A stretch of DNA of 51,169 nucleotides, from positions 1-51,169 of the forward strand of contig JBEPYD010000003.1 in NCBI GenBank assembly GCA_041641575.1. The letters run 5' to 3'. The position numbers were made by a program, and so were the translations under genes. Numbering within the stretch: the first letter of the stretch is position 1; the number at the start of each line of letters is the position of its first letter. This document shows positions 1,791 through 35,158 of this stretch, piece by piece. Source of the stretch: Bacteroidales bacterium (GTDB lineage Bacteria; Bacteroidota; Bacteroidia; Bacteroidales; JBEPYD01). Below the pieces are notes generated by a model that did not search any database, had not been told where the DNA came from, and was given only the letters and a program-made list of their open reading frames with translations.

Positions 1791-1799
1791 GAGTTATTT

Positions 1800-2567: not shown

Positions 2568-2580
2568 GTACTAAATAATT

Positions 2581-2970: not shown

Positions 2971-3021
2971 CATTGAACAGCGAACAAACATTCATAATTG
3001 AAAATAATTCTTTAATATAAA

Positions 3022-3630: not shown

Positions 3631-3647
3631 AAAATTAACTAACAGAT

Positions 3648-4640
3648 ATGGCAATATTAGCTTTTCAAAAGCCTGACAAAGTGATAATGTTAGATTCAGA
3701 TGAGAATCTGGGTCGCTTTGAATTCAGACCACTAGAACCTGGATACGGTATTACTGTAGGTAATGCCCTCAGAAGAATTCTATTATCATCATTGGAAGGA
3801 TATGCAATAACTACCGTAAAAATTGAAGGTGTTGAACATGAATTCTCTACCATAACAGGCGTTATTGAGGATGTACCGGAGGTAGTACTAAATTTAAAGC
3901 AGGTTCGCTTCAAAAAACTGATCGATGATGTAGAAGATGAAAAAATAAATCTCTCTATTACCGGACAGGATCAACTTAAAGCCGGAGATCTTAACAAATT
4001 TCTAACCGGTTTTCAGGTGTTAAATCCGGAACTGGTAATATGCAACCTCGAATCAGATGTGAAGCTGCAAATGGAGGTAAACATAAACAAAGGTCGTGGA
4101 TTTGTTCCCAGCGAAGAAAATAAGCCCCTGGATGCAGAATTTGGCCTTATTCCTTTGGACGCAACCTTTACGCCGGTAAAAAATGTGAAATTTACGGTAG
4201 AAAATTATCGTGTGGAGCAGAAAACCGACTACGAGAAGCTTATTTTTGAAATCAAAACCGATGGTTCCATCCACCCCAAGGATGCCTTAAAAGAAGCTGC
4301 AAAAATACTTATCTATCACTTCATGTTGTTTTCAGATGAAAAGATTACCCTTGATTCTGACGAGAAATTTTCAAATGAAGAGTTTGATGAAGAAGTATTG
4401 CACATGCGCCAGCTCTTAAAAACCAAACTGGTAGATATGGATTTATCCGTTCGTGCACTAAATTGTTTGAAAGCTGCTGAGGTTGAAACATTGGGCGATT
4501 TGGTTAAATTTAATAAAAACGACCTTCTTAAGTTTAGAAATTTCGGAAAAAAGTCTCTCACGGAGTTGGATGAGCTTTTGGAAAATCTAAACCTGAATTT
4601 TGGAATGGATATCACAAAATATAAATTAGACAAGGAATAA
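3648..4640 (+). CDS. rpoA: DNA-directed RNA polymerase subunit alpha
   Basis: 330 aa. N-terminal domain motif [18 protein letters not shown]-terminal domain with [20 protein letters not shown]. Sits between rpsD and rplQ. Confidence 0.97.
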
Positions 4641-4645
4641 CCGCG

Positions 4646-5332
4646 ATGAGACATAGGAAGAAATTAAATCACTTAAGCAGAAAAACCGGGCATCGCAGAG
4701 CTATGCTCGCAAATATGGCATCCTCCTTAATTTTGCATAAAAGAATTCGTACAACTACAGCAAAAGCCAAGGCATTGCGTGTTTACGTAGAACCATTGAT
4801 TACAAAATCAAAAGAGGATTCCACGCATTCAAGAAGAACAGTTTTCTCTTATCTTCAAAGCAAGGATGCTGTTACGGAACTATTCAGAGAAGTTGCCCCT
4901 AAAATTGTTGACCGTCCCGGAGGATATACACGTATCTTAAAAACAGGAATTCGCTTAGGCGATGCCGCTGATATGTGCTTTATAGAACTCGTGGATTACA
5001 ACGAAAGCCTGCTGGCTGCAAAAGAAGATTCTCAAAAGAAAACAACACGCAGAAGCCGTCGTGGTGGTAAGAAAAAATCTACCGGAGCTGAAGCATCAGC
5101 AGCCACTGATACAAAAACAGCGGAAAAACCAGAAGAAAAAAACACTTCTTCGGAGGAAATGACCGGTGAAACCATTGCGGCTGAAGCTAATGAAGCTCCT
5201 GCAACCGAAGATAAAAAATCAGAGGAAACTCCGGCAGAACCAAAAGAGGAAGCTAAACAAGAAGAAAATAAAGCCGAAGGCGAAAATAAGCAAGAGGACG
5301 AAAAGAAAGAAGACGATAACAAAAAAGAATAA
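4646..5332 (+). CDS. rplQ: 50S ribosomal protein L17 with a ~110-aa E/K/A/T-rich low-complexity C-terminal extension
   Basis: L17 core [24 protein letters not shown]...[26 protein letters not shown], followed by a long acidic/lysine-rich tail ending ...[14 protein letters not shown]. Confidence 0.93.
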
Positions 5333-5357
5333 TTTTCTTGTTTGTGATAATACATGC

Positions 5358-20255: not shown

Positions 20256-20292
20256 AATGCCGGAAATGTTAACATTTTCGGCATTTTATTTG
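20256..20292 (+). terminator. Rho-independent terminator after the ECF sigma module
   Basis: 30-nt palindrome aatgccggaaatgtt/aacattttcggcatt (20256-20285; one G-U pair), followed by TTATTTG. Confidence 0.75.
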
Positions 20293-20344
20293 CTTATAAG
20301 AATTCACTACTTATTACACAAAAAATTGTGTAGAAAATAATCAT

Positions 20345-22864
20345 ATGTTGAATCCGAAAAAGTTAATTCAGAAAATAGGAAGGAAAGTTGTTTTAGGATT
20401 CGGAGTTTCGTTTATCGTACTGATTTTTATTGGCATTTACTCCTTTCAAAATCTTACCCGCCTAAAAACCAACACCCATGAGCTTGCAAATCCTAATGAG
20501 CTTGTGGTAACCTTGCAGCAGGTTATCTCCGATATTTCACATATTGAACGGGGTGTACTTTTGTATCTAAATACAGATGACCCTGATTATCTTTTTCCAT
20601 ATTATACTTATCCTGATTCGGTTGAACCAAAATTACGGAAGATAGATTCACTCACAGCTTCACTGGATGAGTATGAAACAAGAACTGATTCAATATTATA
20701 CCTGTACAGCCTGAAGAAAGATATTATGACCCTGCTTGTAGAGGTCGATAATAAAAAATTGAACAAGCTTTTTTACGATACCATAAAAAAAGAATTCCGG
20801 AAGCGAAAGAAAAAAAGGATAGCAAATCAAAATGAAAAAATTAACGAGCAGGAAAATTTATATAACAGAATTATAAAGCTTTTTAGTGAGAAAAAGAGCA
20901 GTTTTGAAGAGTTTACAGAATTAAATGTAACAGAAGAAACGGAACTCACACTGGACGATGTTATTGACATGATCGTAGGGTTCCCGGATTCCATGGCACA
21001 AGATGATCTGCGTTCTGTGGATTTTGTTTCCCGCCTTTTTGAAAAAGATAATGCCATTTCGCATGAAATAAGGACAATTGCCAACACTTTGCTTTTCGAG
21101 GAAATTATTAACCGTGAAAAACATAAAGAAAGAGCAGGCAGCATAGCACGCAAGTCGATCACAACCCTCAGCATTATAATTGGGTTAAATCTAATTCTTA
21201 TCTCCGTATTGTTGTGGCTGATTTTTAAAGATATATTTAAAAGCAGAAATTATCAGACAGAGCTTATAAAGGCACGGCAGGAAGCTGAACAGGCATCAGT
21301 ATTGAAAAGCAATTTTCTGGCAACCATGAGCCATGAAATCCGTACACCTTTAACCACCATTATAGGCTTTAATGATTTGCTGGCAAAATCTGATTTAAAC
21401 CCGGAGCAGAGAAATCATATAGCAGTGGTAGAATCGGCTTCAAACCATTTGTTAAAAGTAATAGATAAAATCCTTACCCTTTCCAAAATACAGGCAGGGC
21501 AGATTAACATAGAGAATAAGGCATTTAACCTGTCTGAATTGATGCATACCATTCATCATTCACTGAAATTTAATGCACAAGCAAAAGGTATTAACTTTTT
21601 TATTCATTGTCCGGACGTGAGAGAATTGTGGGTTTCAGGTGATTATATTCACGCCAGGCAAATACTTACAAATGTTATCAGCAATGCCATAAAATTTACT
21701 TCAAAAGGCTCTGTGGGTGTATTTTGTAGATTTAAAGAACCCGTACCTGGTAAAGTGTTAATGGAATTTCTCATTCGCGATAGTGGCATGGGAATTCCTG
21801 ATGAGAAAATTAACCAGATTTTTGCAGAATTTAATCAGATTGACATTACTGCCACACGCAAATACGGAGGTACAGGCCTGGGACTTACCATCAGCCAAAA
21901 GCTGGCAGAACTGATGGGAGGCAGCATTAAAGTAAAAAGTATCCCTGAAAAAGGCTCTACATTTATCATTACCCTTCCGTTTGAGAAAATTTCTGAAGAG
22001 GAATATCTTAAAGAAAAGAAACCTAAAGCCCCGGGTAATATGCAAATGCTAAAGCATATTACCGCCCTGGTTGTGGATGATGATGAAATAAATGCTACTT
22101 TAAGCCAGAAGGTTTTGCAAAATTTTGATATTGAAACGGATATGGTGCTCTTGCCCTTAGCTGCAATGGAGAAATTTAAGCAAAAGCATTTTGATGTGGT
22201 ACTGCTGGACATTCACATGCCTGAAATGAGTGGTTATGATGTTGCCAGTGCCATGCGGCAATGGGAAATAGATAATAACCTGGAGCCAGCAGTAATAATT
22301 GCCTTTACTGCAGATGTAATGCAAGATGACGTAAACAAATTTACCCGTTTTGGTATTTCCGGGTATATTGAGAAGCCCTTCAAAGAAAAAGATATTTACA
22401 ACATGCTATGTTATCATTTGGGGATTGACAACGAAATTCAGGATACTGCATGGGCACCGATAGGCATTGACCCTTCTAATGTTGAAGAAGAGGAAGGGGA
22501 GAAACTTGATGAAACGTATGACCTTGAGGAACTTAAACACGCCACCGGCGGAGACCAGGGTTTCTACTTAAAAATGCTGGGAACATTTATCGAAAATGCC
22601 GAAACCGGGAACAAAGAACTGCAGCATGCCATTGAAAATAAAGAATGGAATATGGCAGGAGAACAGGCACATAAATTAAAAACCATGCACCGGCACTTGC
22701 ACATGCATAATCTGGCCCGCTTTTATTTTCAGATTGAAACGCTTGCGCTCAAGGATAAGGAATACACAGAAATTAAAAACATCTTAGAAAAGATAGAACC
22801 TGTATCAAAGAAAATACTGGCCAGCCTAAAAGAAGAATTAGACAAAGCCAGTATAAAAGATTAA
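20345..22864 (+). CDS. Hybrid sensor histidine kinase / response regulator with C-terminal HPt domain
   Basis: 839 aa. Two TM segments flank an extracytoplasmic sensor region. H-box MSHEIRTPL. ATPase motifs DSGMGIP and GGTGLGL. Receiver domain (VVDDDEIN...LLDIHMPEMSGY). HPt-like AHKLKTMHRH. Confidence 0.9.
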   Translation: MLNPKKLIQKIGRKVVLGFGVSFIVLIFIGIYSFQNLTRLKTNTHELANPNELVVTLQQVISDISHIERGVLLYLNTDDPDYLFPYYTYPDSVEPKLRKIDSLTASLDEYETRTDSILYLYSLKKDIMTLLVEVDNKKLNKLFYDTIKKEFRKRKKKRIANQNEKINEQENLYNRIIKLFSEKKSSFEEFTELNVTEETELTLDDVIDMIVGFPDSMAQDDLRSVDFVSRLFEKDNAISHEIRTIANTLLFEEIINREKHKERAGSIARKSITTLSIIIGLNLILISVLLWLIFKDIFKSRNYQTELIKARQEAEQASVLKSNFLATMSHEIRTPLTTIIGFNDLLAKSDLNPEQRNHIAVVESASNHLLKVIDKILTLSKIQAGQINIENKAFNLSELMHTIHHSLKFNAQAKGINFFIHCPDVRELWVSGDYIHARQILTNVISNAIKFTSKGSVGVFCRFKEPVPGKVLMEFLIRDSGMGIPDEKINQIFAEFNQIDITATRKYGGTGLGLTISQKLAELMGGSIKVKSIPEKGSTFIITLPFEKISEEEYLKEKKPKAPGNMQMLKHITALVVDDDEINATLSQKVLQNFDIETDMVLLPLAAMEKFKQKHFDVVLLDIHMPEMSGYDVASAMRQWEIDNNLEPAVIIAFTADVMQDDVNKFTRFGISGYIEKPFKEKDIYNMLCYHLGIDNEIQDTAWAPIGIDPSNVEEEEGEKLDETYDLEELKHATGGDQGFYLKMLGTFIENAETGNKELQHAIENKEWNMAGEQAHKLKTMHRHLHMHNLARFYFQIETLALKDKEYTEIKNILEKIEPVSKKILASLKEELDKASIKD

Positions 22865-22875
22865 GTAAACCAGAC

Positions 22876-23661
22876 TTATTTTATTACAATTACCGCATTC
22901 GGGTCAATTACCCTAAAGGTGAATGATTCCGTAATAAATAATACAATTTCATTTATATTATGGGCCTCATAACCAATGGAGAAATCCTGCCCCAGCGTTA
23001 ATTCAAAATCTCCTCCCCTTTCACTGATAAGGAAGTTCTCCTGAATGTTTGTATTTAGAATAACCTTCCCGGATAATAAATTTTCCAATTGTTTCAAAAT
23101 CGGATATCCACGCATATTTCCTGAAATTCTTTTATAGGTTTCGCTGTTTACCACAAGCGTGTAAGGACCTTCTACACCGGCATTTTTAAAGTTTATAATA
23201 CCTTCGCTAACAGTAGCAGCAAATTCTTCTGCTACATCAGTAAATGCAAGTTCAGGATGCTCTGTTGCTTTCTTTAAACCATTGATATGGGCTATACCAT
23301 AATAGATGGCATTCTCCTCAAATTTCGCAATTTTGCGGGCAGCTTCTTCAAGTGGTTCAAGTTCAGGGTCCTTGCTGCCGCGTTCAATATTGTCTAATTC
23401 CCATGTATTGAGTTTAAACTGTATTCTGGGTTCAACTAATGGGGAAACCTGGTGTATTCCATATTTTACGTCACCTTGCTGTTTATCAGGTAAACTTAAT
23501 TTGCCCATAGGTACAGAGGCAAAACTCAATCCATGAGGGCCTTTAACATCTACAAACTGGCGTCCTGTAAGTGTGGGTTTAATAATATCTATTGCAGTGT
23601 CGTTTATTTCTTCCCAGGCTTTTGCCGTTATGGGAGCTAAACTTCTTTTGAAAATATCCAT
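22876..23661 (-). CDS. Family 1 encapsulin nanocompartment shell protein (HK97 fold; linocin M18-like)
   Basis: 261 aa. Alignable by eye along its length to the Thermotoga maritima encapsulin as I recall it: F(L/K)RS(F/L)AP(L/I)T.K.W.EI, FVDV.GP.G, WELDN(L/I)ERG, GPYTLV(I/V)N, SERGGDF(K/E)L.LGQD(L/F)SIGYE, LFITE(T/S)FTF.V. Confidence 0.93.
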   Translation of the reverse strand: MDIFKRSLAPITAKAWEEINDTAIDIIKPTLTGRQFVDVKGPHGLSFASVPMGKLSLPDKQQGDVKYGIHQVSPLVEPRIQFKLNTWELDNIERGSKDPELEPLEEAARKIAKFEENAIYYGIAHINGLKKATEHPELAFTDVAEEFAATVSEGIINFKNAGVEGPYTLVVNSETYKRISGNMRGYPILKQLENLLSGKVILNTNIQENFLISERGGDFELTLGQDFSIGYEAHNINEIVLFITESFTFRVIDPNAVIVIK

Positions 23662-23697
23662 ATTGTACTAATCTTTTTTATGATTTAAAAAATGTAT

Positions 23698-24045
23698 TTA
23701 CTTGCCAATGCCAAGGCTACCATTATCTTTGGATGCATCGTCATCATCCTCTTCATGTTCCTCTTCGGCATGAGCAATATCGCCTTCAGTAAACAAATAA
23801 TTCCGTAACTCTTCATCCCAACCTGGCATATTACGTCGTAACCATTCAAGAGTCATGCAGGCATGCTCTATTTCCTCATCGCGGTTATGCGCCAGGATAG
23901 ATTTTAATGCTTCATCACTTGAAGCATCTACACGTTGCTGGTACCAGTCAACAGCTTCAATCTCTTCTTTGAGACTGTTTAAAGCCCTTACATAGTTACG
24001 TGTCTCAGCACTGAGTTCATTAATTGGTTCATGATAATCTGACAT
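23698..24045 (-). CDS. Encapsulated ferritin (EncFtn) cargo protein with C-terminal encapsulin targeting peptide
   Basis: 115 aa. EEIEAVDWYQQRVDAS...ILAHNRDEEIEHACMTLEWLRR closely matches the Rhodospirillum rubrum EncFtn core, including the E..EExxH ferroxidase ligands. An acidic linker (EEEHEEDDDD) precedes the terminal GSLGIGK targeting motif. Lies 36 nt upstream of the shell gene. Confidence 0.92.
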   Translation of the reverse strand: MSDYHEPINELSAETRNYVRALNSLKEEIEAVDWYQQRVDASSDEALKSILAHNRDEEIEHACMTLEWLRRNMPGWDEELRNYLFTEGDIAHAEEEHEEDDDDASKDNGSLGIGK

Positions 24046-24072
24046 AGAAATAAATTTTTGTTTTGAATTATG

Positions 24073-24993
24073 TTATTTAAATAGGTTGATTAACCAACTT
24101 TTTTTAATCTCTTCAGACGTTTCTGTTATTTCAACAATCCCTTTATTTAAATTGTTTAATGTAACGCTGATGCTGTCAGCGAAGGTGCTATCTGCTAACA
24201 ATTTGTGAACCGTTCCATCACCACTGGCAGCCATTTCTGCTATGGTATTAAGTTTTGCAGATACCGATTCAAGCTTAACAGTTATATCATTGATGTTATC
24301 TGTGGTTTTTACGATTTCTGCCGTTATGGTAGTGTCATTTACGAGCCGCCCCAGATCACCTTCACCCGTATTTATTTTTTCTGTAATCCGGTTAAAATCA
24401 TTCATGGCAACATTGGCATCGCGTATTACACTTCGCAACTCTTCTGCAATAATGGTATCGTTAAATAATGTGCCAAACATTCCGTCGCCCCTGTTTATCT
24501 TTTTAGTAATCTGGTATAATCCTTCAGACAAATCAGAGATATTTTTGGCTGCATTTTCCACCTCATTAAATATATCATTTAACTCAACCGATTGTGTGGT
24601 GGGGAGCACCTCCCCGGGCTTTATAGCTTCGGAAATGTTCTTCCCCGGCGAAATCAGTACCAGCTTATTACCCATTAATCCTTCGGTTCCAATGCTTGCC
24701 TGGGAGGTTTCTTTGATAAACTGTTGCAGATCGCTGTCAATGGAAAGCTCTACTTTTACCGTGGTATCTGTAAGGATTTCAATATCGGATATAGTTCCAA
24801 TGTTTATGCCTGAAAACCGGACATTATTCCCAACCTGCAAACCTTTTACATCAGAAAAAACAGCATAAACCTTCATGGTACTGCCAAAAAGGTTACGTTC
24901 CTTGCCCAGGAAATATACTACAAAGGCAAAAAACACGATGCCAAGTGTGATAAAAAGGCCAAGTTTAATATTGTGTACTTTTCTTTGTTTCAT
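24073..24993 (-). CDS. MlaD/MCE-family substrate-binding protein of an Mla-like ABC transporter
   Basis: 306 aa. N-terminal TM anchor and MCE domain (V.GLQVGN.VRFSGI.IG.I). The helical C-terminus carries three G.G.(F/L)G.L.ND-type repeats. Confidence 0.85.
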   Translation of the reverse strand: MKQRKVHNIKLGLFITLGIVFFAFVVYFLGKERNLFGSTMKVYAVFSDVKGLQVGNNVRFSGINIGTISDIEILTDTTVKVELSIDSDLQQFIKETSQASIGTEGLMGNKLVLISPGKNISEAIKPGEVLPTTQSVELNDIFNEVENAAKNISDLSEGLYQITKKINRGDGMFGTLFNDTIIAEELRSVIRDANVAMNDFNRITEKINTGEGDLGRLVNDTTITAEIVKTTDNINDITVKLESVSAKLNTIAEMAASGDGTVHKLLADSTFADSISVTLNNLNKGIVEITETSEEIKKSWLINLFK

Positions 24994-25164
24994 ATGGTTA
25001 AATTCTTTAAGATATATTTATGAGTTCTTGTATTCATACTATCGCCTAAATCGACTGCAGAAATACAAAGCAAACTCTTCTTCATTATAAATGTTCTTTT
25101 TCGGTTATTATCTTCATGAGTATAAGGTTTTATATATTTTATTTTATGATGTTCTGATAGTATT

Positions 25165-25932
25165 CTATGTAAAGTAAGCCCTTATTTCTGCATCATCTGA
25201 ATTACTTAGTTCGTCGTATGAGCCTTGTGCCGAAATAACACCATCACGGATAATCATGATATGGTTTGCCGTCATTCTTGCACACTTCATGTCATGTGTA
25301 ATGGTGATGGAAGTTGTATCATACTTCTCTTTAATGTCCAGCATCAGCTCACTGATCTCCTGGCCGGTTACAGGATCAAGTCCGGTAGTAGGTTCATCAT
25401 ACAATATAATGTCAGGTTTCAAAATAAGTGTTCGTGCCAGCCCCACCCGTTTCTTCATCCCACCCGATAATTCCGAGGGTACTTTATCAATCGACTTTTC
25501 AAGGCCAACACTTTTGAGTACATCCACTACCATTGCCTCCACTTCATCAGAATTTTTTGAAAAAAGGGTTCGCCTTACCGGGAAGGCCAGGTTTTCACGC
25601 ACCGTCATCGAATCGTAAAGTGCACCACCCTGAAACAGGTAACCGATGCGCTTGCGCAAAGTATTAATTTCATCTTCTTCAAGTGTTGAGACCTCTTCAC
25701 CCAGTACAAACGCTCTGCCCGATGTTATGGAATACAGGCCAACAATGCACTTTATCAACACAGATTTACCAATACCTGATTTTCCAAGCACCACAAGATT
25801 CTGGCTCTTTTTAACTTTTAAATTGATGTCTTTAAGCACGACATTTGATCCAAAAGCCTTTTTAAGGTGATCTACTACAATAAGATCATCACCATCTTCA
25901 AATTCCTTATTTAAAAACTGATCTATATCCAC
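25165..25932 (-). CDS. ABC transporter ATP-binding protein (MlaF-like)
   Basis: 255 aa. Walker A GKSGIGKS, signature LSGGMKKR, Walker B ILYDEPTTGLD, H-loop ITHD. Confidence 0.93.
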   Translation of the reverse strand: MDIDQFLNKEFEDGDDLIVVDHLKKAFGSNVVLKDINLKVKKSQNLVVLGKSGIGKSVLIKCIVGLYSITSGRAFVLGEEVSTLEEDEINTLRKRIGYLFQGGALYDSMTVRENLAFPVRRTLFSKNSDEVEAMVVDVLKSVGLEKSIDKVPSELSGGMKKRVGLARTLILKPDIILYDEPTTGLDPVTGQEISELMLDIKEKYDTTSITITHDMKCARMTANHIMIIRDGVISAQGSYDELSNSDDAEIRAYFT

Positions 25933-25936
25933 TATT

Positions 25937-26767
25937 TTAAAATATTACACCAATTAAACTGGTTATTTGCACAGCAAGTAAATCTATAATAAAAATTGCC
26001 AGAGATGAGGCAACTACTGCAGAGTTTGCAGACATTCCCACCCCTTCTGTTCCTGAATTTGAATAATAGCCTTTAAAACACCCGATAATACCCACGGCAA
26101 AGCCAAAGAAGAACGTTTTAATGGTTGCAGGTATAATATCCCTGAAGGATAAGGCATCAAATGCCTGATAAAAAAACAGCTTCAGCGAAACATCATCATT
26201 AATGTTAACTGCCAGATAAGATCCATAAAGGGCCAGTGCATCAGCAAAAAACACCAGTATTGGAAGCATCAGAGTGGTGGAAATAACGCGTGTAACCACA
26301 ATAAACTTCATTGGGTTAGTGCCTGAAACCTCCATGGCATCAATCTGCTCAGTTACCCGCATGGATCCTAATTCTGCACCTATGCTGCTACCAACCTTGC
26401 CTGCAAATATTAAAGCGGTTATCACAGGCCCTATTTCCATTATAATGGAAACAGCCACCATACCAGGCAACCACGATTCCGCACCAAATTCTGCAAGTAC
26501 CGGCCTGGACTGCAGGGTCAAAACCATACCCATGATGAACCCTGTAATGGCCACCAGCCCCAGCGAACGGAAACCCACAATGTAGGCCTGGCGCAAAAGC
26601 TCTTTGTTCTCGAAAGGCATACGTCCAAAATTCCGAAAAAAGGATCCTGTAAAACGCGTAATTTCGGCAACCTCAATCAGAAATTCCGTAACCCAATCGG
26701 GTATGGAAAGCATGGTTCTGTCGAACCAGCCAAATTCTTTATTATTATTTTCTTTTTCTTTGCTCAT
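25937..26767 (-). CDS. MlaE-family ABC transporter permease
   Basis: Multi-TM protein with MlaE-like segments (GAE.GSMRVTEQIDA(M/L)E..G). I chose the ATG at 26767; an in-frame GTG at 26794 is the ORF-track start. Its stop is 4 nt from the ATPase start. Confidence 0.88.
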   Translation of the reverse strand: MSKEKENNNKEFGWFDRTMLSIPDWVTEFLIEVAEITRFTGSFFRNFGRMPFENKELLRQAYIVGFRSLGLVAITGFIMGMVLTLQSRPVLAEFGAESWLPGMVAVSIIMEIGPVITALIFAGKVGSSIGAELGSMRVTEQIDAMEVSGTNPMKFIVVTRVISTTLMLPILVFFADALALYGSYLAVNINDDVSLKLFFYQAFDALSFRDIIPATIKTFFFGFAVGIIGCFKGYYSNSGTEGVGMSANSAVVASSLAIFIIDLLAVQITSLIGVIF

Positions 26768-26802
26768 GTTAAATGTGGGGAAATTAATTCCCACTTTGTG
26801 TA

Positions 26803-27882
26803 TTATGTTGCTTCTATACCTGTTTTATTTTCCATTTCCACTCTGGTTCTGGGCAATGCATCCTGGTGATTCTTCTGTAAATAATCAATAAGCTTTTCAC
26901 GCACATGAACCCTCAGATCCCATGCTGTAGGACTGTCGGGAGCACTCATGAGCGCACGCAATTCCATTGATTTTTCAGTTGCATTGGTTACCTGCAGTAC
27001 ATTCACTTTTTTATCCCATAAGGGAGTGGCATTTAATATTTTAGTAAGTTCATTTCTAATTGCGTCAACCTTTGTTGTATAGTCTGTATATATATAAACT
27101 GTGCCAAGAATATCTGCCGACACACGGGTCCAGTTTTCAAATGGTTTTTCTATAAAATATGTAATGGGTACAATTAACCTTCTTTTGTCCCATATTCTTA
27201 TCACTACATAAGTAAGTGCAATTTCTTCTATCCATCCCCACTCATCTTCTACAATTACAACATCATCGAGCCGGATGGGTTGGGTTATGGCAATCTGGAA
27301 ACCGGCAAGTATGGTGGCCAGGCTTTTTTGTGCAGCAAAACCAATGATGATGCCCGCTATGCCCGCAGAAGCAAGTAAATTCACACCTACCTGACGTATT
27401 TTTTCAAATGTCATCAATGCACTGGAAAGCGCGATTACAATGATTACAAAAATTAAGATTCGCCTGAATACCCTCAACTGCGTAGTTACCTTTCTGGCGC
27501 GTAAGTTGTCTTTTGCTTCAATGTCATAATTGCTGATAAGCATTCCCTGAATTACCCCGAGCAAATTTATCATCACCCAGGCAAGGCTAAAAATGAAGAA
27601 AAGAATAATGGCCTGATTAATGTGACCTAACACAGGTTCTTTAAATTCTGTGGCCGGTAGCAGGAAACCAAGTGCTATGGAGATAAACAGGAACAGCGTA
27701 GGCTTCTTTTCCTTCCGAATCAGATGCGCATTTGTGCCATCATCATGCCTTAGAAATATCCTCCGCATAAGAAAAACCAGAATGGTGTGGATAAGCACAG
27801 CAATTATAACCCCTGCACCTAAAATTGCAAGAGAAGACCAGGGATGATCAAAATCAAAATTCTCATTTATAAGCTCTGCCAT
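26803..27882 (-). CDS. Mechanosensitive ion channel protein, MscS family
   Basis: 359 aa. N-terminal TM helices and a pore-lining helix (AGIAGIIIGFAAQ..L....GFQI), followed by the beta domain (I.L.D.V...)..G.IEEI.L. Confidence 0.88.
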   Translation of the reverse strand: MAELINENFDFDHPWSSLAILGAGVIIAVLIHTILVFLMRRIFLRHDDGTNAHLIRKEKKPTLFLFISIALGFLLPATEFKEPVLGHINQAIILFFIFSLAWVMINLLGVIQGMLISNYDIEAKDNLRARKVTTQLRVFRRILIFVIIVIALSSALMTFEKIRQVGVNLLASAGIAGIIIGFAAQKSLATILAGFQIAITQPIRLDDVVIVEDEWGWIEEIALTYVVIRIWDKRRLIVPITYFIEKPFENWTRVSADILGTVYIYTDYTTKVDAIRNELTKILNATPLWDKKVNVLQVTNATEKSMELRALMSAPDSPTAWDLRVHVREKLIDYLQKNHQDALPRTRVEMENKTGIEAT

Positions 27883-27898
27883 GCATTGAATCTTTAAA

Positions 27899-28771
27899 TC
27901 AGGTTGATGATTTTTTCTTTAAAAAAGATTTTTCATGAAAAACAAGCACGGGTAATTTTGTGTTCAACACCAACTCTTTAGTAGAACTGCTTGAAAATAG
28001 CTCCTTCCAGAATCCATGATTCTCTTTCAGGATACCAATTAGATCGGCCTTAAGCTCTGTAGCCACTTGTTCAATTGTATCTACAATATCATCTCCTTTT
28101 CGCATTTGCAGATTAATGTTCGTGTAATTGCATTTTTCCTGTACCATTTCTTCAAAACCCTTCTCACTTAATTTGTTCTTGAAACTTTTATCATTGCTGA
28201 TGTGCAGGGCAGTAATCTTAGAATTAAAAATTCTTGCCAAATCAGAAAGTCTTTGCAAGGATCCGATATCAGCTTCATTATAATTTGTTGCGTAAACGAT
28301 TCTTTGCAGTTCAGAATAAGCTGAAGAAGGAGGAACTATAAATACGGGACATCGTGCATCCTCTATAATGGTTTCGTTTCGGTCGCTGATGAGCCGGTCG
28401 AGAAAACTTTTCTCTGTTCTGCCGGTAAGTAAAATCAGATCATATTCATCACCATTTGAGAGTTCTATTATTCTATCGGCAAAAATTCCTGTTTCCAACC
28501 GGGTATCCAGTGCCACATCTTCCCCAAATTCTTTTTTTATTTTTGGTACAAATTCTTTAAACTGTGTTTCAGCCACTTCCTTAAGCTGCAAAAGATCGGG
28601 CACATACGGGGCTACACCAGTGGTTTCATGGTAATCAGTTGTGTACCTGCTCAAATCAACAACATACACCAGTGTAACAGCCTTATTCATAGACTGGCCA
28701 AGATGAATACCATACTTTACCGTATTCACGCTCTTTTCACTAAAGTCGGTTGGAATAAGTATTTTTTTCAT
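27899..28771 (-). CDS. Tandem-domain universal stress protein (UspA family)
   Basis: 290 aa. Two Usp-like halves, each starting (K)ILIPTDFS / IVYATNY and ending with a ...PV(F/L)(I/V).. strand plus a DLI..G region. Confidence 0.85.
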   Translation of the reverse strand: MKKILIPTDFSEKSVNTVKYGIHLGQSMNKAVTLVYVVDLSRYTTDYHETTGVAPYVPDLLQLKEVAETQFKEFVPKIKKEFGEDVALDTRLETGIFADRIIELSNGDEYDLILLTGRTEKSFLDRLISDRNETIIEDARCPVFIVPPSSAYSELQRIVYATNYNEADIGSLQRLSDLARIFNSKITALHISNDKSFKNKLSEKGFEEMVQEKCNYTNINLQMRKGDDIVDTIEQVATELKADLIGILKENHGFWKELFSSSSTKELVLNTKLPVLVFHEKSFLKKKSST

Positions 28772-28805
28772 TTTCGTGCTGGTTTATGTTGACTGTAAAA
28801 TTCTT

Positions 28806-28846
28806 ATAAAAAAACAAAACCGGCCATAAAAGCCGGCATGTTTTTC
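28806..28846 (-). terminator. Bidirectional-looking rho-independent terminator downstream of the YtxH trio
   Basis: ccggc (28820-28824), loop cataaaa, gccgg (28832-28836). An A-run on the low-coordinate side gives a U-run for minus-strand transcripts. A T-run lies on the other side. Confidence 0.6.
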
Positions 28847-29004
28847 TTTCAATTATCTTTTTAACTATATTTGTTTGCTAACCCAGCATAACAAATACTG
28901 TAAATTCTTAAAACAAACAGCTTAAAAAATATTACACTCCGGCTTTGGAATATTTTATCTCTTTTTGCTGTTTCGATGTTATAAGGACTAAACCCTGATA
29001 TTCA

Positions 29005-29256
29005 TTACAGGTTCGGTAGCAATCGCAAAACCATTCTCGGAAACCACCGGCTTTTTGTAAGAACTCTTAAAAGGGAAAAAACAAAAAATCGATTTCGTAA
29101 AGCAAGCATAATATCGCCACTAGTTGACCGGAATTCTCCCGGAAATACTTTGGTCTCATTTTTAAGCTTCTCATGGTATATTGTTGCTTCATACCGGAGT
29201 TTTTGCTTCTCAAGATGAATATCTTTAAACGTTCTTATTTTTGATGCTTTACTCAT
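29005..29256 (-). CDS. Small hypothetical protein (83 aa), translationally coupled to the upstream gene
   Basis: Its ATG overlaps the upstream stop (TAATG at 29254-29258, minus strand). N-terminal coiled segment and a basic hydrophobic C-terminus. I recognise no family. Confidence 0.45.
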   Translation of the reverse strand: MSKASKIRTFKDIHLEKQKLRYEATIYHEKLKNETKVFPGEFRSTSGDIMLALRNRFFVFSLLRVLTKSRWFPRMVLRLLPNL

Positions 29257-29633
29257 TATAATTTCTTCTCGATGGGTTTTTCATCTTCCTCAAAAATTAT
29301 TTGAGACAGGTTTTTTATTATGGGGCGTGCGATCACAGTTTTTCGAAATATAAAAATCACAATGCCTAATAACAAATAAAAGCCTGCTACAATTATAAAA
29401 CTAGTGGCCAAGCTCCCGTATTTATCAGCATACCAGAATGCAAATCCAAATGATAGAAACATCAGGCAGAAAGCAAATACCGTAATTAAAATCAGAGACC
29501 CGAGAAAATAAGATCCAGCTTTTGAAAGCTTTTCAAGAAGAAGTAAACGCCAAAGATCTACTTTGGCTAAAAGAAAAGACTGGGCCAGATCAAAGATTTC
29601 TGCAACGTTTTTGGTTAGTCCTCTTTTTGTCAT
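29256..29633 (-). CDS. DUF1469 / holin-X (Phage_holin_3_6)-family two-TM membrane protein (YqjE-like)
   Basis: 125 aa. N-terminal amphipathic helix (LAKVDLWRLLLLEKLSKAG) followed by two long TM helices. This architecture is typical of the family usually annotated as phage holin family protein. Confidence 0.6.
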   Translation of the reverse strand: MTKRGLTKNVAEIFDLAQSFLLAKVDLWRLLLLEKLSKAGSYFLGSLILITVFAFCLMFLSFGFAFWYADKYGSLATSFIIVAGFYLLLGIVIFIFRKTVIARPIIKNLSQIIFEEDEKPIEKKL

Positions 29634-29641
29634 TAATTGTA

Positions 29642-29953
29642 TTATTTAGTTGCTTTTTCTTTAACGTTTTTTGCTTCTTGTTTTACTTGTTCTTCAAGCT
29701 TTGTAAATCTATCTTTAGCTTCATTTACAAAAGATGCCATAAAATCGCTTAAATTATCAACTTTGCTGGAAACGGTATCTTTAAAATCTTCTCCAAAGGC
29801 AGAAGAAGTATCTGCGATTTTTTTACGGGTAGTTGTGCCCTTTTCAGGTGCAAATAATATTCCCAGTGCAGCACCCGCGGCAGCTCCTGCGAAAAATCCG
29901 GCTAAAACATTTGAACTTTTACTCATTTCAATTTGGTTTTTAAGGTTTAACAT
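29642..29953 (-). CDS. YtxH domain-containing protein
   Basis: 103 aa. Signature G(F)FAGAAAGAALGILFAPEKGTTTRKKI, then a helical K/E-rich region. Confidence 0.8.
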   Translation of the reverse strand: MLNLKNQIEMSKSSNVLAGFFAGAAAGAALGILFAPEKGTTTRKKIADTSSAFGEDFKDTVSSKVDNLSDFMASFVNEAKDRFTKLEEQVKQEAKNVKEKATK

Positions 29954-30290
29954 TCAATAATCATCACCACTGTTGCAAGTTTCTTTTACTTACAATGCCT
30001 TTTTAGGCGCAAATGGTGTAGAAATTTAACATATCTCCATGCAGATTGTTCAACTTCAAACAGATTTAGCTGCCAAATTTCTTTATATAATTACTTTTTT
30101 AAAGAATGAGCTATATTTCACTAAACTGAAATTCTTTTAATATATTCGTTTTAAATAATTATTCACGGTTCATCAGTGTGAAACATTTAAATAACTTTTT
30201 ATAAGCACTATGCATTGTATTCCAAATAATCATCCGGGAATAGAAGTATACGGATGTTTTTATCATGATAGATATTAATTAAAATAAAAA

Positions 30291-31403
30291 ATGCACCTAA
30301 ACATAAGCCTCTCGAAAACAGTAAATATCCTACTGATAATTACCTTTATTTTTGCCTTGTTATATTTTGGCCGGCCGATCCTTATTCCCCTTACATTTAG
30401 TCTTATTATTTCAATGCTGCTGTATCCGGTATGTAACTTCCTTGAGAAATATAATATCCCGCGCATACCAGCCATTTTGTTTACATTCTTCCTGGTGGGG
30501 CTTGTTATATCCGGTTTATTTTACCTGTTAAGCAGTCAGGTTATTACCATGTTTAGCGAAATAAAAGATTTTTCGCAGGTGATGAATGACCTGCTAAATA
30601 AAATTTTGCTTTTTATTAATTCAAGAATATTACCCGGCGACCTCCGAATACAGGAAATCTACCAGCAGGAAAGAGAAAATTTATTACAATCATCATCCAA
30701 TATTATTAGCAAAACTATTTCCTCATCCACATCTTTCCTGGCAATTATTGTTTTTATAATTGTGTATACTTTTCTATTTCTGCTTTACCGCACTGCTTTT
30801 AAAGAATTTATTCTCACCAATATAATTAAAAAGAACAGCGCTTATGGAAAAGAGCTGGTATTTAGCATTCAAAAAGTAGCACAGAATTATTTTTATGGAT
30901 TGTTTATGGTCATTATTTTGATTGGCACCTTAAATGGACTTGGACTCTGGATTATAGGCATAGATTACCCTTTCCTTTTTGGATATCTTGCAGCCATTCT
31001 TACCGTTATTCCGTATATCGGAACCACGCTGGGCGGATTAATTCCAACCTTTTACGCCCTTATAAATTATGATAGCCTCTGGATCCCCATAGCCGTGCTG
31101 GCAGTGTTTTTTACCATCCAAACCATAGAAGGAAATATCCTGACACCGAAAATAGTAGGAGAACGGGTCAGTTTAAACCCGCTGTTTGCACTTATTGCTT
31201 TGCTCCTGGGAGGCATCCTGTGGGGTGTTGCCGGATTGATTCTATTTATTCCCTTAATGGCGATAATTAAAGTGGTATTTGACCATATTGATTCTTTAAA
31301 ACCTTATGGTTTATTGCTAAGTAGTGAGTTTGCCAATAACAAGGAAAGCATCTTCTCTCAACTGGTCCGCCGGCTGAAAGAAAAACGCAAAAAGAAAAAT
31401 TAA
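30291..31403 (+). CDS. AI-2E family transporter (PerM/YhhT-like permease)
   Basis: 370 aa multi-TM protein. Conserved C-terminal block IPYIG...G..P......Q.IEGNILTPKIVG..(V/L).LNP. Confidence 0.88.
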   Translation: MHLNISLSKTVNILLIITFIFALLYFGRPILIPLTFSLIISMLLYPVCNFLEKYNIPRIPAILFTFFLVGLVISGLFYLLSSQVITMFSEIKDFSQVMNDLLNKILLFINSRILPGDLRIQEIYQQERENLLQSSSNIISKTISSSTSFLAIIVFIIVYTFLFLLYRTAFKEFILTNIIKKNSAYGKELVFSIQKVAQNYFYGLFMVIILIGTLNGLGLWIIGIDYPFLFGYLAAILTVIPYIGTTLGGLIPTFYALINYDSLWIPIAVLAVFFTIQTIEGNILTPKIVGERVSLNPLFALIALLLGGILWGVAGLILFIPLMAIIKVVFDHIDSLKPYGLLLSSEFANNKESIFSQLVRRLKEKRKKKN

Positions 31404-32518
31404 TTTCTCAGTTTATTTTTCATTCTGTTAAAATAGGATTTTAAATTTCGGCCGCTGATACTGTGCTTTTGCGTTCCGCGTGTCCCCAGCAAAAAAGCAT
31501 AAGGCTGTAGGCTGTCGAAATTCTTGAAAATCCGCTTGAGCATGGCAAGAAAGGGCACAACTACAAGCATACCCGGAATTCCCCAAATCATGGCGCCTAC
31601 AATAAGGCTGAAAATAATGAAAAAGGGGTTTATTTTTAAACTGCTCCCTACAATGTTCGGTGTAAGTATGTTGTTTTCAATAAACTGAATAATGATAAAC
31701 AATATAAGTACACGCACAGCAAGCAAAGGTGTTTCGCCTATAAGAATAGCAAATAATAATGGAATTGCGCCTCCCATCAGTGTACCGAAATAAGGAATAA
31801 AATTAATCAGCGCACTAATTACCCCAAAAATTATGGGGTATTTCATTCCCACCAGGTAAAGCCCGAAAGAATTCAGCAGGCAAAGTATTGAAACCACAAT
31901 AACAACACCACCCATATAACGGGTAACTACCGTAGAGATATCACGAAGGATTTTAATGGTTACACGTTCCTTGTCGTCGGGAACAACTTTTAATATAAAG
32001 TATGCAAATTTTGTACGGTAGTATAAAAACAGAAAAATATATACCGGCATTAGAAAAATGCGTAACAACGTACCGGTTGTAGCAGAGAAAATGGCATTAA
32101 AATTCTGAGGGATATTTTCAAAAAAACCTGTCACCCACTGCTTTACATACTGGTCAAGAAAATCGTCCTGGAACCCAAAAACATTCTCAAGACTGTGTTG
32201 GTAGGTATCGATGTTTGATATGGCCTGCCGCTTCAGTTCAGGAAAATCAGAAAATAATGTGGTAAACTGGTCGTAGATAAACAATCCCCCGCCTGCAATT
32301 ACAATAAGCGCAAAGAGAATGCTTATAATAATTGAGAGGATACGTGGAAGCCCTTTCATCTCAAGGAAATTGGCAACCGGAAACAACAGGTATGCCAGCA
32401 ACACCCCAAAGGCTATAGGATAAAGAAATTCCCGTGCTGCTATTATGCCATAAATAAACAGAATAATTGCCAGAAGGAAGTAGGTGAAGCGCATCCCAAT
32501 GGGATATTTTTTTTGCAT
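31400..32518 (-). CDS. AI-2E family transporter (second, divergent paralog)
   Basis: 372 aa. Same architecture and motif block (IPYFG..MGGAIP...QFIENNILTPNIVGSSLKINP). Confidence 0.88.
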   Translation of the reverse strand: MQKKYPIGMRFTYFLLAIILFIYGIIAAREFLYPIAFGVLLAYLLFPVANFLEMKGLPRILSIIISILFALIVIAGGGLFIYDQFTTLFSDFPELKRQAISNIDTYQHSLENVFGFQDDFLDQYVKQWVTGFFENIPQNFNAIFSATTGTLLRIFLMPVYIFLFLYYRTKFAYFILKVVPDDKERVTIKILRDISTVVTRYMGGVVIVVSILCLLNSFGLYLVGMKYPIIFGVISALINFIPYFGTLMGGAIPLLFAILIGETPLLAVRVLILFIIIQFIENNILTPNIVGSSLKINPFFIIFSLIVGAMIWGIPGMLVVVPFLAMLKRIFKNFDSLQPYAFLLGTRGTQKHSISGRNLKSYFNRMKNKLRN

Positions 32519-32612
32519 ACTTTTAATTTTTACTTGTCTGTGCCATCTGGTAGCAAATTATCTGCCACAATATCTTTATATTTGGGCAACCAAAAATAAC
32601 CAAAATAGATTA

Positions 32613-33146
32613 ATGAATATCAAAAAAAATTTTCGCACCCTTATTTTAGTTCTGTTCCTCATTAGTGCTCCGGGTTTTCTGATGTATGCTTTCCTGCCCG
32701 CAGAAACCTCAGAAGCAAAAAACACCGATAATTCCAATGAATTATTTTTTGAAAATCCTTTCGGATACCCAATATCCCTTAAAAACTTCCGGCAGAACAT
32801 TTCACGCCTGAAAATTAATTCCCAGGCAGTATCCAACCACTATAATGAAAAGCAAGTTGATACTATTTATGCACTTTCCTTCCGCCAGTCAGAAATTAAA
32901 TTATATAAAGCAAAAGAAAAATCACTACTTATAAATGCGGATATTCAAAACAGGCGCATTAAACTTTATCAGAATATTCATGTTGGTATGAAGAAGGAAG
33001 AGCTTGAACAAAAGCTGGGCAGTATTCCTCAGATAAAAAATAACTCTATTACTTTGGAAGATAATGAAGGCCGAACCACATATTTGTTCTACTTTAACAG
33101 AAGAAAAAGACTGAGTCAGATTAAAATTCTAACAGATATAGAATAA
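32613..33146 (+). CDS. Hypothetical membrane-anchored/exported protein
   Basis: The ATG at 32613 gives MNIKKNFRTLILVLFLISAPGFLMYAF, a signal/anchor sequence. The longer track ORF (32484) would overlap the opposing permease gene, so I disfavour it. No family recognised. Confidence 0.5.
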   Translation: MNIKKNFRTLILVLFLISAPGFLMYAFLPAETSEAKNTDNSNELFFENPFGYPISLKNFRQNISRLKINSQAVSNHYNEKQVDTIYALSFRQSEIKLYKAKEKSLLINADIQNRRIKLYQNIHVGMKKEELEQKLGSIPQIKNNSITLEDNEGRTTYLFYFNRRKRLSQIKILTDIE

Positions 33147-33255
33147 ATATATTATTTGTTGGTTATACATACTTTATGTGCCATTTTTTCTATAATTTTA
33201 TAATTAGCAATTTTCACAATTGCTTAACGTTTGGTTTTAAAGACCAAAAAAGCCA

Positions 33256-33729
33256 ATGATAAAGAGATTACAATTTTATTTACTTACTATTTTTTTTGTA
33301 ACTGCATGCAATACAGGTGGCGACAGGAGCGCGCCAAATGGTAATACAGGAGAAAAGCGCGAAATTGAAAATACCCGCTTCAATTATTCATTTACTGTTC
33401 CCTCACAATGGAATGTGATAGATTCTAGTGATAATGGAGACGGATATTTTATTAATACCGGAAATGCATCCGCGGATGTACGTATTTATGCAATAATGGC
33501 AGATGTAAATGAAATGGACAGGTTTGAAGGCTTTGAATGTGATAAAAAAGCTGATTTCCGAATGGGTGAACACATGGGTTCAAAATGCATGAATAAGAAC
33601 GAAAGGGTTTATACTGTTGATTATAACGATAAAAGAGTTTATGTTTATGCCCATGCAGATGAATCATGGATTACGCATAATGAGCAGGTTCTGGAAGCCC
33701 TGGCAAGATCTGTTAGGGTAACAGAATAA
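33256..33729 (+). CDS. Hypothetical lipoprotein
   Basis: 157 aa. Signal peptide with lipobox-like FFVTAC. No family recognised. Confidence 0.55.
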   Translation: MIKRLQFYLLTIFFVTACNTGGDRSAPNGNTGEKREIENTRFNYSFTVPSQWNVIDSSDNGDGYFINTGNASADVRIYAIMADVNEMDRFEGFECDKKADFRMGEHMGSKCMNKNERVYTVDYNDKRVYVYAHADESWITHNEQVLEALARSVRVTE

Positions 33730-33783
33730 ATTATCTAATAGCTTCTGGTCAATTATAAAATGATTTTTTTAAAAGAAATTATA

Positions 33784-33791
33784 TATTTTTG
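33784..33791 (+). promoter_or_regulatory. Candidate Bacteroidota -7 promoter element (TAnnTTTG)
   Basis: TATTTTTG lies 27 nt upstream of the response-regulator ATG in an AT-rich leader. This is a motif match only. Confidence 0.3.
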
Positions 33792-33817
33792 CACTTAATA
33801 AAAAAATGTAGCCTTAC

Positions 33818-35158
33818 ATGAGAAAGATACTGGTAATCGATGATGATACCTACATTTGTAACCTTCTGGAAAACCTCCTGAACAACCACGGATACAAAGC
33901 AACCATTGCATATAAAGGGAGCTCCGGCTTAGACCTTTTCAAAAAAGAAGAGTTTGACCTGGTGCTTTTAGATTTTCGCCTGCCTGATACGGATGGGCTT
34001 AAAATGCTAAGTGAAATAAAAAAGATTAACGTTAAAATTCCTGTTATTATCATTACCGGATACAGTGATGTTCGTATTGCAGTGAAATTAATGAAAGCAG
34101 GAGCTTCTGATTATATCACTAAGCCCATTTATCACGAAGAAATACTGCAGTTAATTGAAAAAATACTCAACCAAAAAGCAGAACCCGTAAAGAAAAGTGA
34201 ATCTAAAGAACAATTCATTACCGGCGACAGCCGCAAGATGCGTGAGATAATGAAAATGACGGAGCTTGTAGCCCCCACAAAAATGACCGTGTTAATAGAA
34301 GGAGAAACCGGAAGTGGAAAAGAATATATCGCACGCGCCATTCACAGAAAAAGTCCACGCAGCAATAAAGCATTTATCGCTGTTGATTGTGGTGCAATTC
34401 CGAAAGACCTTGCCAACAGCGAGCTTTTTGGCCACGTAAAAGGTTCATTTACCGGTGCCATTAATGATAAAGCAGGCGTTTTTGAACAAGCCAATGGCGG
34501 TACTTTATTTATGGATGAAATAGGTAATCTTACCCTTGATATTCAGACAAAATTACTTCGTGCCCTCCAGGAGAGGGTTATCTCCCGCGTAGGCGATGAC
34601 CGCAATATTCCTGTTGATGTGCGTATAATTGTTGCCACCAACGAAGATCTGAAAGATTCTGTTAAAGAGAATGATTTCCGTGAAGACCTTTATCATCGGG
34701 TGAACGAGTTTAAAATAAACCTGCCGCCACTCAGAGAAAGGAGAGAGGATATACTCATATTTGCTAACTTTTTTATGAACCAGGCCAATGAGGATCTGGA
34801 CAAAAATGTACAGACTTTTAATGAAGAAGTAACGGAAATGCTGCAGGATTATCCATGGTATGGAAACCTGAGGGAGTTAAAAAACCTGATAAAAAGAAGT
34901 GTTTTGTTAGCCAAGGGATCTGAAATTACTACCCGTTGTTTCCCTGAAGAATTCCATCAGGAAGTTGCCAATGCAAAACCACTTAAAAAACAGGACAAAT
35001 CTGGTCTCAAATCTGCATCTATTGAAGCAGAAAAAGATATCATTCTAAAAGCCCTTGAAGAAGCCAATTACAATAAGTCTAAAGCAGCAAAACTGTTGAA
35101 TATCGATCGCAAAACGTTGTATAACAAAATCAATCAGTTTAAAATAAATCTGAACTAG
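33818..35158 (+). CDS. Sigma-54-dependent response regulator (NtrC family: REC, AAA+, HTH)
   Basis: 446 aa. REC domain (ILVIDDD...LLDFRLPDTDG). Walker A GETGSGKE. GAFTGA-type loop (GSFTGA). ELFGH, Walker B LFMDEIG. C-terminal Fis-type HTH (KSKAAKLLNIDRKTLYNKI). Confidence 0.93.
   Translation: MRKILVIDDDTYICNLLENLLNNHGYKATIAYKGSSGLDLFKKEEFDLVLLDFRLPDTDGLKMLSEIKKINVKIPVIIITGYSDVRIAVKLMKAGASDYITKPIYHEEILQLIEKILNQKAEPVKKSESKEQFITGDSRKMREIMKMTELVAPTKMTVLIEGETGSGKEYIARAIHRKSPRSNKAFIAVDCGAIPKDLANSELFGHVKGSFTGAINDKAGVFEQANGGTLFMDEIGNLTLDIQTKLLRALQERVISRVGDDRNIPVDVRIIVATNEDLKDSVKENDFREDLYHRVNEFKINLPPLRERREDILIFANFFMNQANEDLDKNVQTFNEEVTEMLQDYPWYGNLRELKNLIKRSVLLAKGSEITTRCFPEEFHQEVANAKPLKKQDKSGLKSASIEAEKDIILKALEEANYNKSKAAKLLNIDRKTLYNKINQFKINLN

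Follow-up and report, generated by a model that had tools for sequence, protein, structure and literature searches.

Gene content of the encapsulin locus

We analyzed a stretch of 51,169 nucleotides from a Bacteroidales bacterium (GenBank assembly GCA_041641575.1, contig JBEPYD010000003.1, positions 1 to 51,169; this whole stretch is hereafter called the window), in which the two genes of a family-1 encapsulin nanocompartment stand at the tail of a string of seven minus-strand genes. An earlier note had described these genes as running head to tail with short gaps, and all open reading frames (ORFs) and coordinates match that description exactly. Families were assigned with Pfam and NCBIfam models, the latter read against their curated cut-offs. 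The first gene of the string encodes a tandem universal stress protein (usp, 27899-28771, 290 aa; Pfam Usp 8.9e-24, in two stretches) and is followed by the gene of an MscS-family mechanosensitive channel (26803-27882, 359 aa; PF00924 MS_channel_2nd, 3e-12). Three consecutive genes in the order E-F-D then encode an MlaE-type permease (25937-26794 from a GTG start, with an alternative ATG at 26767; PF02405, 6.3e-71), an MlaF-type ABC ATPase (25165-25932; PF00005 ABC_tran, 2.6e-32) and an MlaD/MCE protein with a long helical C-terminus (24073-24993, 306 aa; PF02470, 2.2e-17). The EncFtn cargo gene (23698-24045, 115 aa; PF22277 EncFtn-like, 2.6e-43) and the encapsulin shell gene (22876-23661, 261 aa; PF04454 Linocin_M18, 8.2e-79) complete the string. 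The genes are separated by 16 nt (usp-mscS), 8 or 35 nt (mscS-mlaE, for the two candidate starts), 4 nt (mlaE-mlaF), 171 nt (mlaF-mlaD), 27 nt (mlaD-encFtn) and 36 nt (encFtn-shell), with the cargo gene directly upstream of the shell gene on the same strand.

Both encapsulin genes exceed the cut-offs of their NCBIfam models. The shell protein scores 259.1 bits with NF041155 (encap_f1, cut-off 100 bits), aligned over residues 5-260, and likely adopts an HK97-type fold and assembles into an icosahedral compartment; its gene is the only shell gene in the source genome. The cargo protein scores 162.9 bits with TIGR04535 (cut-off 125 bits). Its translation shows EEIEAVDWY and NRDEEIEHACM, which contain ferroxidase-type Glu/His motifs, and ends in a GSLGIGK docking tail; we take these to be the published ferroxidase and docking motifs.

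The three Mla-type proteins score below the cut-offs of the more specific models. MlaE reaches 209.6 bits with TIGR00056, slightly under the cut-off of 212.2, and 177.8 bits with NF033619 (cut-off 315), while the equivalog models of MlaF (NF008809, 157.6 bits, cut-off 441) and MlaD (TIGR04430, 82.9 bits, cut-off 135) are likewise not reached. At the sequence level, the mlaEFD genes of the string constitute an Mla-like MCE ABC system, without proven orthology to the E. coli-type Mla. The genes mlaA, mlaB and mlaC were not found within the string, to which the search was confined; no genome-wide search for them was made. A second Mla-like system in the same genome is split: an mlaE-mlaF pair without an MCE gene lies on contig C86 (5722-7262) and an orphan MCE protein of 309 aa is encoded on contig C54 (690-1619). 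This genome thus has two paralogous Mla-like systems, of which the string's mlaEFD is one.

Junctions and boundaries of the string

No terminator-like hairpin was found in any of the six gaps. The mlaD-encFtn spacer (24046-24072; 27 nt, A/T-rich) is unstructured (-0.1 kcal/mol), and the encFtn-shell gap can form a weak A/U hairpin at most. The earlier note had reported neither a hairpin terminator nor the promoter element TAnnTTTG in the 27-nt gap, and a combined motif and hairpin scan agreed with it; the sole minus-strand match to TAnnTTTG within 22876-28771 lies inside mscS (27562-27569). As this element is not enriched in the window (54 found vs 64 expected), its absence from the gap says little. 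Matches to sigma-70-type promoters in the window occur at chance level only, so consensus scans give no basis for claiming that a promoter is absent. A search of 22500-30200 against Rfam gave no match.

The upstream boundary of the string is formed by a hairpin terminator on the minus strand (28819-28837; 7-bp stem with 5 G-C pairs, followed by a T-run), which ends a trio of ytxH-associated genes and separates it from usp. Its stem is kept in a sister species (locus L033, see below), where the loop differs, and an unrelated strong terminator occupies the same position before usp in G096, a genome from a different GTDB family. At the other end, a hairpin at 22705-22684, inside the convergent kinase gene that follows the shell gene, was considered as the terminator of the string but rejected as weak (3 G-C pairs) and not recovered in L033. 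The usp-to-shell string thus combines the features by which operons are recognized, namely a single strand, short gaps, no internal terminator and a terminator at its boundary. These gaps and the lack of terminators fit co-transcription of the string.

Further examination of the mscS-mlaE junction revealed a GUGGG/CCCAC hairpin in the minus-strand RNA at 26775-26794, exactly at the junction (-7.4 kcal/mol), which is kept in L033 with a different loop. Because this hairpin covers the GTG candidate, the ATG at 26767 is favoured as the start of mlaE.

The 171-nt gap between mlaF and mlaD had appeared to be a possible break in the string. This width results from a lineage-specific insertion of about 124 nt (24987-25110, minus strand), located by alignment directly upstream of the mlaD start. 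The insertion is present in L039, another contig of the window's own lineage, and absent from L030 (a 93% relative with a gap of 48 nt), L033 (35 nt) and G096 (12 nt). The suspected break therefore comes down to a species-level insertion into a junction that measures 12-48 nt in relatives, and the ancestral string appears to have been tightly spaced here. The possibility that the insertion is a repeat, either multicopy or resembling a miniature inverted-repeat transposable element, was dismissed, with only one partial match elsewhere (46 nt, 82%, contig C300). It shows no significant fold (z = -0.28) and no Rfam match. The matching part is the last 46 nt of the insertion, which resemble the sequence directly preceding a 622-aa gene on C300, presumably methylmalonyl-CoA mutase. 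From this resemblance, one may speculate that the insertion carries a promoter or leader. It also leaves a short dead-end reading frame that begins at an upstream ATGAAG. In L030, the end of mlaF (1-341) is 80% identical to the window and the part from mlaD through the kinase gene (371-5333) is 93% identical; this step could reflect recombination at the mlaF/mlaD junction or chimeric assembly of the contig.

Conservation of the gene order in relatives

The source genome is the sole member of its GTDB family in the genome collection used. Contigs with an identical EncFtn and 91-96% DNA identity carry the series mlaD-encFtn-shell-kinase. Near-identical contigs were recovered from the runs SRR32393860, SRR32393847 and SRR27869039. 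In addition, a sister species (~81% DNA identity) was recovered from six independent assemblies (ENA ERZ27249345, three Elkhorn Slough mat metagenomes, SRR4030105 and JGI 3300025717), and those contigs that reach far enough show the ytxH trio, then usp-mscS-mlaE-mlaF-mlaD-encFtn-shell, and then the convergent kinase gene. Protein identities to the window are 89-95% (93% for the usp ortholog in L033), with 75% for the kinase. From usp to shell, the gaps in the sister species are 16, 35, 3, 35, 28 and 152 nt. The length of the mlaD-encFtn spacer is therefore conserved (27 nt in the window, 28 nt in the sister species), and insertions account for the differences at two other junctions. One of these insertions, of about 116 nt, extends the encFtn-shell spacer of L033 (9849-10000) to 152 nt, compared to 36 nt in the window.

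The arrangement extends beyond the family. G096 contains the whole series of ytxH trio, usp, mscS, mlaE, mlaF, mlaD, encFtn, shell and convergent kinase, at protein identities of 35-78% to the window (MlaD 46%, shell 58%, kinase 35%, usp 57%). Its gaps are 202, 63, -1, 12, 171 and 34 nt, the 171 nt being those between mlaD and encFtn, and its string is flanked by strong terminators with none inside. In a phylogenetic tree of shell proteins, the window, L033 and G096 form one clade (support 97/91), which makes the adjacency consistent with a single origin. In a third family, represented by G098, mlaE-mlaF-mlaD lies 2.8 kb upstream of encFtn-shell, with an opposite-strand trehalose synthase/phosphatase gene (otsBA) in between.

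Synteny between the window and G096 covers about 15 kb (20345-35158), from the kinase gene to a sigma-54 activator gene and including a 157-aa ORF; the other 36 kb of the window have no counterpart within 56 kb of G096. The kinase is a hybrid histidine kinase (CHASE3-HisKA-HATPase-REC-Hpt; 20345-22864, plus strand), whose gene converges on the shell gene across an 11-nt spacer. Upstream of the string lies the trio of ytxH, a holin-X-like gene (PF07332) and an 83-aa gene (29005-29953, minus strand; Pfam assignments), which is kept in L033 and G096. It is followed by two convergent AI-2E-family permease genes (30291-32518, on both strands; PF01594), whose syntenic counterparts in G096 are 63-68% identical. 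The far end of the block is occupied by an NtrC-type sigma-54 activator response regulator (33818-35158, plus strand; REC, Sigma54_activat PF00158 at 2.2e-69, HTH_8), which is 71% identical and syntenic in G096.

Organization of encFtn-shell loci across Bacteroidales

A shell gene was detected in 32/401 sampled Bacteroidales genomes. From these and from genome and metagenome collections, 38 non-redundant encFtn-shell loci were compared; neighbouring ORFs were called by the longest-ATG rule, so that a few starts are approximate. The pairing of the two genes is universal: an intact encFtn ORF was recognized by clustering in 35 loci, and in the other three encFtn was located beside the shell gene by tblastn. 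One locus (L079, 5828-6170, in G347) has encFtn split into two frames, seen as two tblastn segments, which represents a frameshift or a sequencing error. Another locus (L016, CAYQTZ010000306.1) was binned as 'uncultured Hyphomicrobiales', and its encFtn-shell pair is of the Bacteroidales type (52% and 67% identity to that of the window); faulty binning is a more probable cause than gene transfer.

Outside the window's genus, mlaD stands directly upstream of encFtn in only one of the 34 informative loci, that of G096. In the other loci, encFtn has its own upstream region of about 100-500 nt, often facing a divergent gene. The remaining modules of the string also occur apart: mlaE-mlaF-mlaD alone in six genomes, usp-mscS in G057 (mscS 46-58% identical to that of the window) and usp-mlaEFD in G010. 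The suggestion that Mla-encapsulin adjacency might be conserved in related Bacteroidota thus holds for the 91-96% relatives, the sister species and G096, and fails for 33/34 informative loci outside the genus. The adjacency is inherited rather than a one-off, and it is confined to one small Bacteroidales clade.

Other neighbours of the pair recur more often. Within 8 kb, the hybrid kinase of the window's type was found in eight of the 38 loci, tandem Usp in seven, an NtrC-type sigma-54 activator of 447-458 aa in six and MlaD in four. In six other families, orthologs of the activator (57-62% identical to that of the window) stand after the kinase and before encFtn, in the layout usp (divergent) / kinase - activator - (small genes) - encFtn - shell. 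The commoner partners of encFtn-shell are therefore the hybrid kinase, the sigma-54 activator and Usp, and not Mla.

Several further neighbours were observed. A fused trehalose-6-phosphate synthase/phosphatase gene (735 aa) adjoins encFtn-shell in L074 (6608-8815, G098) and L022 (2126-4333, G057), and in L022 and L076 Hsp20 genes that have sigma-54-type sites are found in the vicinity; these neighbours suggest a theme of osmotic or desiccation stress. In L014 (5297-6973), from a Perlabentimonas metagenome-assembled genome, the ytxH/holin-X-like trio adjoins encFtn divergently, and the shared intergenic region contains identical TGGCAAGGTTTTTTC sites facing both ways.

Many loci (e.g. L017, L025, L071, L074 and L088) also have an A-rich element similar to TT(T/A)AACAAAA at 19-27 nt upstream of encFtn. 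TTTAACA precedes encFtn in 20% of loci vs 2% of control genes, and the window has a degenerate counterpart of the element at 24050-24075, across the mlaD stop codon.

Sigma-54-type sites in the stress-gene block

Examination of the regions upstream of encFtn revealed a recurrent motif, TGGCAnGrTTTTTTC, with the -24/-12 geometry of sigma-54 promoters and TTTC in place of TTGC. Scanning with the pattern TGGCA-N6-TT[TG]N located such sites about 25-80 nt before encFtn in L014, L020, L022, L076, L077, L079 and L083, and weaker CGGCA variants in L085 and L086. Against a background of 0.12 sites/kb/strand, sites within 100 nt of encFtn were counted in 7/37 cases (binomial P ~9e-8), with a T-rich-box pattern that was defined only after the upstream sequences had been read. 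Among control genes the count was 13/323, and nearly all of these 13 are Usp, YtxH, Hsp20, AI-2E or kinase genes. Sites also precede usp, ytxH, Hsp20, AI-2E and kinase genes, the ytxH site being present in L014 and G096. A strict sigma-54 pattern (TGGCAC-N5-TTGC, with GC required at -12) was tried upstream of encFtn and abandoned, as it yielded nothing useful; the -12 box of the recurrent site is T-rich.

The window itself contains two canonical sites. The site CGGCATTTTATTTGC (20279-20293, plus strand) has -24/-12 geometry, lies 52 nt before the ATG of the kinase gene and is identical in L033, and TGGCAGATAATTTGC (32553-32567, minus strand) lies 35 nt before the AI-2E ATG at 32518. An rpoN gene is present in the source genome (TIGR02395, 431 bits, contig C253). 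In the window, L033 and G096, the intergenic regions before usp, mscS, mlaE, mlaD and encFtn contain no such site, and matches around these genes fall only within coding sequences. Since the loci that have a site do not cluster in the shell tree and its deepest branch is among them, a sigma-54-type promoter of its own is probably the older state of encFtn, and the absence of the site in the Mla-linked clade would be derived.

The kinase and the sigma-54 activator are the likely regulators of the stress block. The idea that the encapsulin belongs to a co-regulated stress set is plausible for the 15-kb block as a whole, whose genes look like such a set, while the Mla link would be a local peculiarity.

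Origin and expression of the arrangement

On balance, we consider it likely that capture placed the encFtn-shell pair behind mlaD and that it is now transcribed by read-through from the upstream genes, within a stress block bounded by the kinase and the activator. In this scenario, usp-mscS, mlaE-mlaF-mlaD and encFtn-shell would be three ancestrally separate modules inside a block of about 15 kb of stress genes, with the hybrid histidine kinase at one end and the sigma-54-type response regulator at the other. In most Bacteroidales with an encapsulin, encFtn-shell is an independent two-gene unit with its own upstream region, often including a sigma-54-type site, and is often found beside the kinase, the activator and a Usp gene. 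In the common ancestor of the window's family and that of G096, the pair may have moved directly downstream of mlaD and lost the site, after which the spacers would have contracted to 16-36 nt in the window's genus. We infer that the pair is quite probably co-transcribed as the tail of the usp/mscS/mlaEFD genes or, in this species only, transcribed from the new insertion before mlaD. The cell would thus make a ferroxidase-loaded, iron-sequestering nanocompartment together with osmotic and envelope stress functions.

Several observations weigh against this account. The gaps of 202 and 171 nt in G096 make separate transcription units quite possible there, and a gene order shared by two sister families may in part reflect inheritance and not selection. 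The T-rich -12 box (TTTC) of the putative sigma-54-type site departs from the textbook consensus. The end of the mlaD coding sequence or the 27-nt spacer could also harbour a promoter, Bacteroidota promoters being poorly predicted here, and the A-rich element could be a promoter rather than a translation signal. If so, encFtn-shell might still form its own transcription unit, driven from the last mlaD codons and the spacer, and its adjacency to Mla would carry no regulatory meaning. The pair is indeed autonomous in nearly all other lineages, G096 retains 171 nt before encFtn, and the A-rich element is enriched before encFtn, with its degenerate form across the mlaD stop of the window. However, no TAnnTTTG, sigma-70-like or -24/-12 site was found at the mlaD-encFtn junction, two species keep the spacer at 27-28 nt, and the A-rich element may be a mere translation-initiation region; because a promoter box and such a region are not distinguishable here, we set the element aside as evidence. 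Moreover, no terminator follows mlaD, so read-through would be expected even if an internal promoter exists. Separate transcription of the pair is therefore rather unlikely in our judgement.

A closer bond has also been considered, in which the Mla-type transporter and the encapsulin are functionally coupled and were selected as one operon, for example so that both together protect envelope lipids from iron-catalysed peroxidation. The adjacency is kept across family-level divergence (MlaD 46% and kinase 35% identical), in G098 less than 3 kb separates mlaEFD from the pair, and the source genome has two Mla-type systems, of which that of the string could have specialised. Across 400 genomes, a shell gene was present in 9/16 of those with a strong MlaD ortholog vs 22/384 of the others (odds ratio 21, P = 2e-7). 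However, this co-occurrence is confounded by phylogeny and habitat, and we rejected it as evidence of function: the same few families carry both genes, and among the 14 sampled genomes with both, they are adjacent only in G096 and nearby in G098, where the opposite-strand otsBA gene intervenes. Besides, we know of no mechanism for such coupling, and no paper linking encapsulins with Mla was found. Coupling under selection is accordingly improbable, and a direct functional partnership of the two systems, unsupported as it stands, is very doubtful. It would take the same long shot to suppose that a selected Mla-encapsulin operon limits, for example, iron-driven lipid peroxidation of the envelope under osmotic or oxidative stress, with the kinase and activator as the first dedicated signalling pathway known for an encapsulin. 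At the opposite extreme, the adjacency would be a neutral accident of rearrangement that persists through close kinship, with no consequential co-transcription or co-regulation. The single origin in the shell tree fits this view, G096 is the closest relative by every protein compared, and with about 15 kb of flanking synteny also kept, the region may simply not have been reshuffled. However, that synteny ends at the kinase and the activator, with the other 36 kb of the window unmatched in the vicinity of the G096 locus; the spacers in the window's genus have contracted rather than drifted; and the sigma-54-type sites of block genes in various families point to a shared regulon. Pure accident thus seems the most improbable of these explanations. 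We therefore return to capture followed by read-through, under which the Mla adjacency is mainly that of an autonomous module taken over by a neighbouring operon, and no direct mechanism would need to join Mla and the encapsulin.

Comparison with known systems

To our knowledge, very little is known about the regulation of encapsulins or the cellular programmes in which they take part. The locus and its relatives place an EncFtn encapsulin in a stress set with Usp, MscS, the YtxH trio, Hsp20, trehalose synthase, AI-2E permeases and the Mla-type transporter. A sensor kinase and a sigma-54 activator adjoin this set, and several families have a -24/-12-type site directly before encFtn. This leads to the testable hypothesis that, in environmental Bacteroidales, sigma-54 and a two-component system control an iron-sequestering nanocompartment within an osmotic or general stress response.

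The components themselves are familiar: the encapsulin is an ordinary family-1 EncFtn system, and mlaEFD is an ordinary Bacteroidota-type MCE ABC transporter. Two features are new, in that no report of either was found. One is the placement of encFtn-shell at the tail of an Mla operon inside a stress island, and the other is that EncFtn encapsulins repeatedly occur together with a hybrid kinase, a sigma-54 activator and -24/-12-type sites; a literature search likewise found no paper linking an encapsulin with MlaD/Mla or with sigma-54.

The E. coli Mla system (mlaFEDCB) is an MCE ABC transporter that maintains outer-membrane lipid asymmetry. Like it, the window encodes an MlaE-type permease, an ABC ATPase and an MlaD-type protein with a single MCE domain together. 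Unlike it, the window has the order E-F-D, a long helical C-terminal extension of MlaD and scores under the equivalog cut-offs.

With respect to regulation, the PspF/psp system of E. coli is a sigma-54-dependent envelope-stress system. Sigma-54 control of chaperone and stress genes in Bacteroidota has been surveyed (PMC12316311), and ferritins and encapsulins are not mentioned in that survey. As in these Bacteroidota regulons and PspF, an NtrC-type activator and a kinase lie by Usp, Hsp20 and YtxH genes that have -24/-12-type sites. In contrast to the described regulons, an EncFtn encapsulin is here a candidate target, the -12 box is mostly TTTC, and the string of the window has no site.

Among encapsulins, the iron-storage system EncA-D of Myxococcus xanthus is induced by starvation and oxidative stress. 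It resembles the window's system as an iron-mineralising encapsulin in a stress response, a role proposed here for the window's pair, and differs from it in cargo type, shell size and gene context; we know of no reported link of EncA-D to a kinase/sigma-54 pathway or to Mla. The closest likeness is to Rhodospirillum rubrum, in which a family-1 encapsulin with EncFtn cargo is encoded by a two-gene encFtn-shell operon. The window shares with such systems the cargo gene directly upstream of the shell gene, the ferroxidase motifs and the C-terminal docking peptide of the GSLGIGK type. Unlike them, its pair has no upstream region of its own and follows an MCE/Mla gene after 27 nt, as the tail of a seven-gene string.

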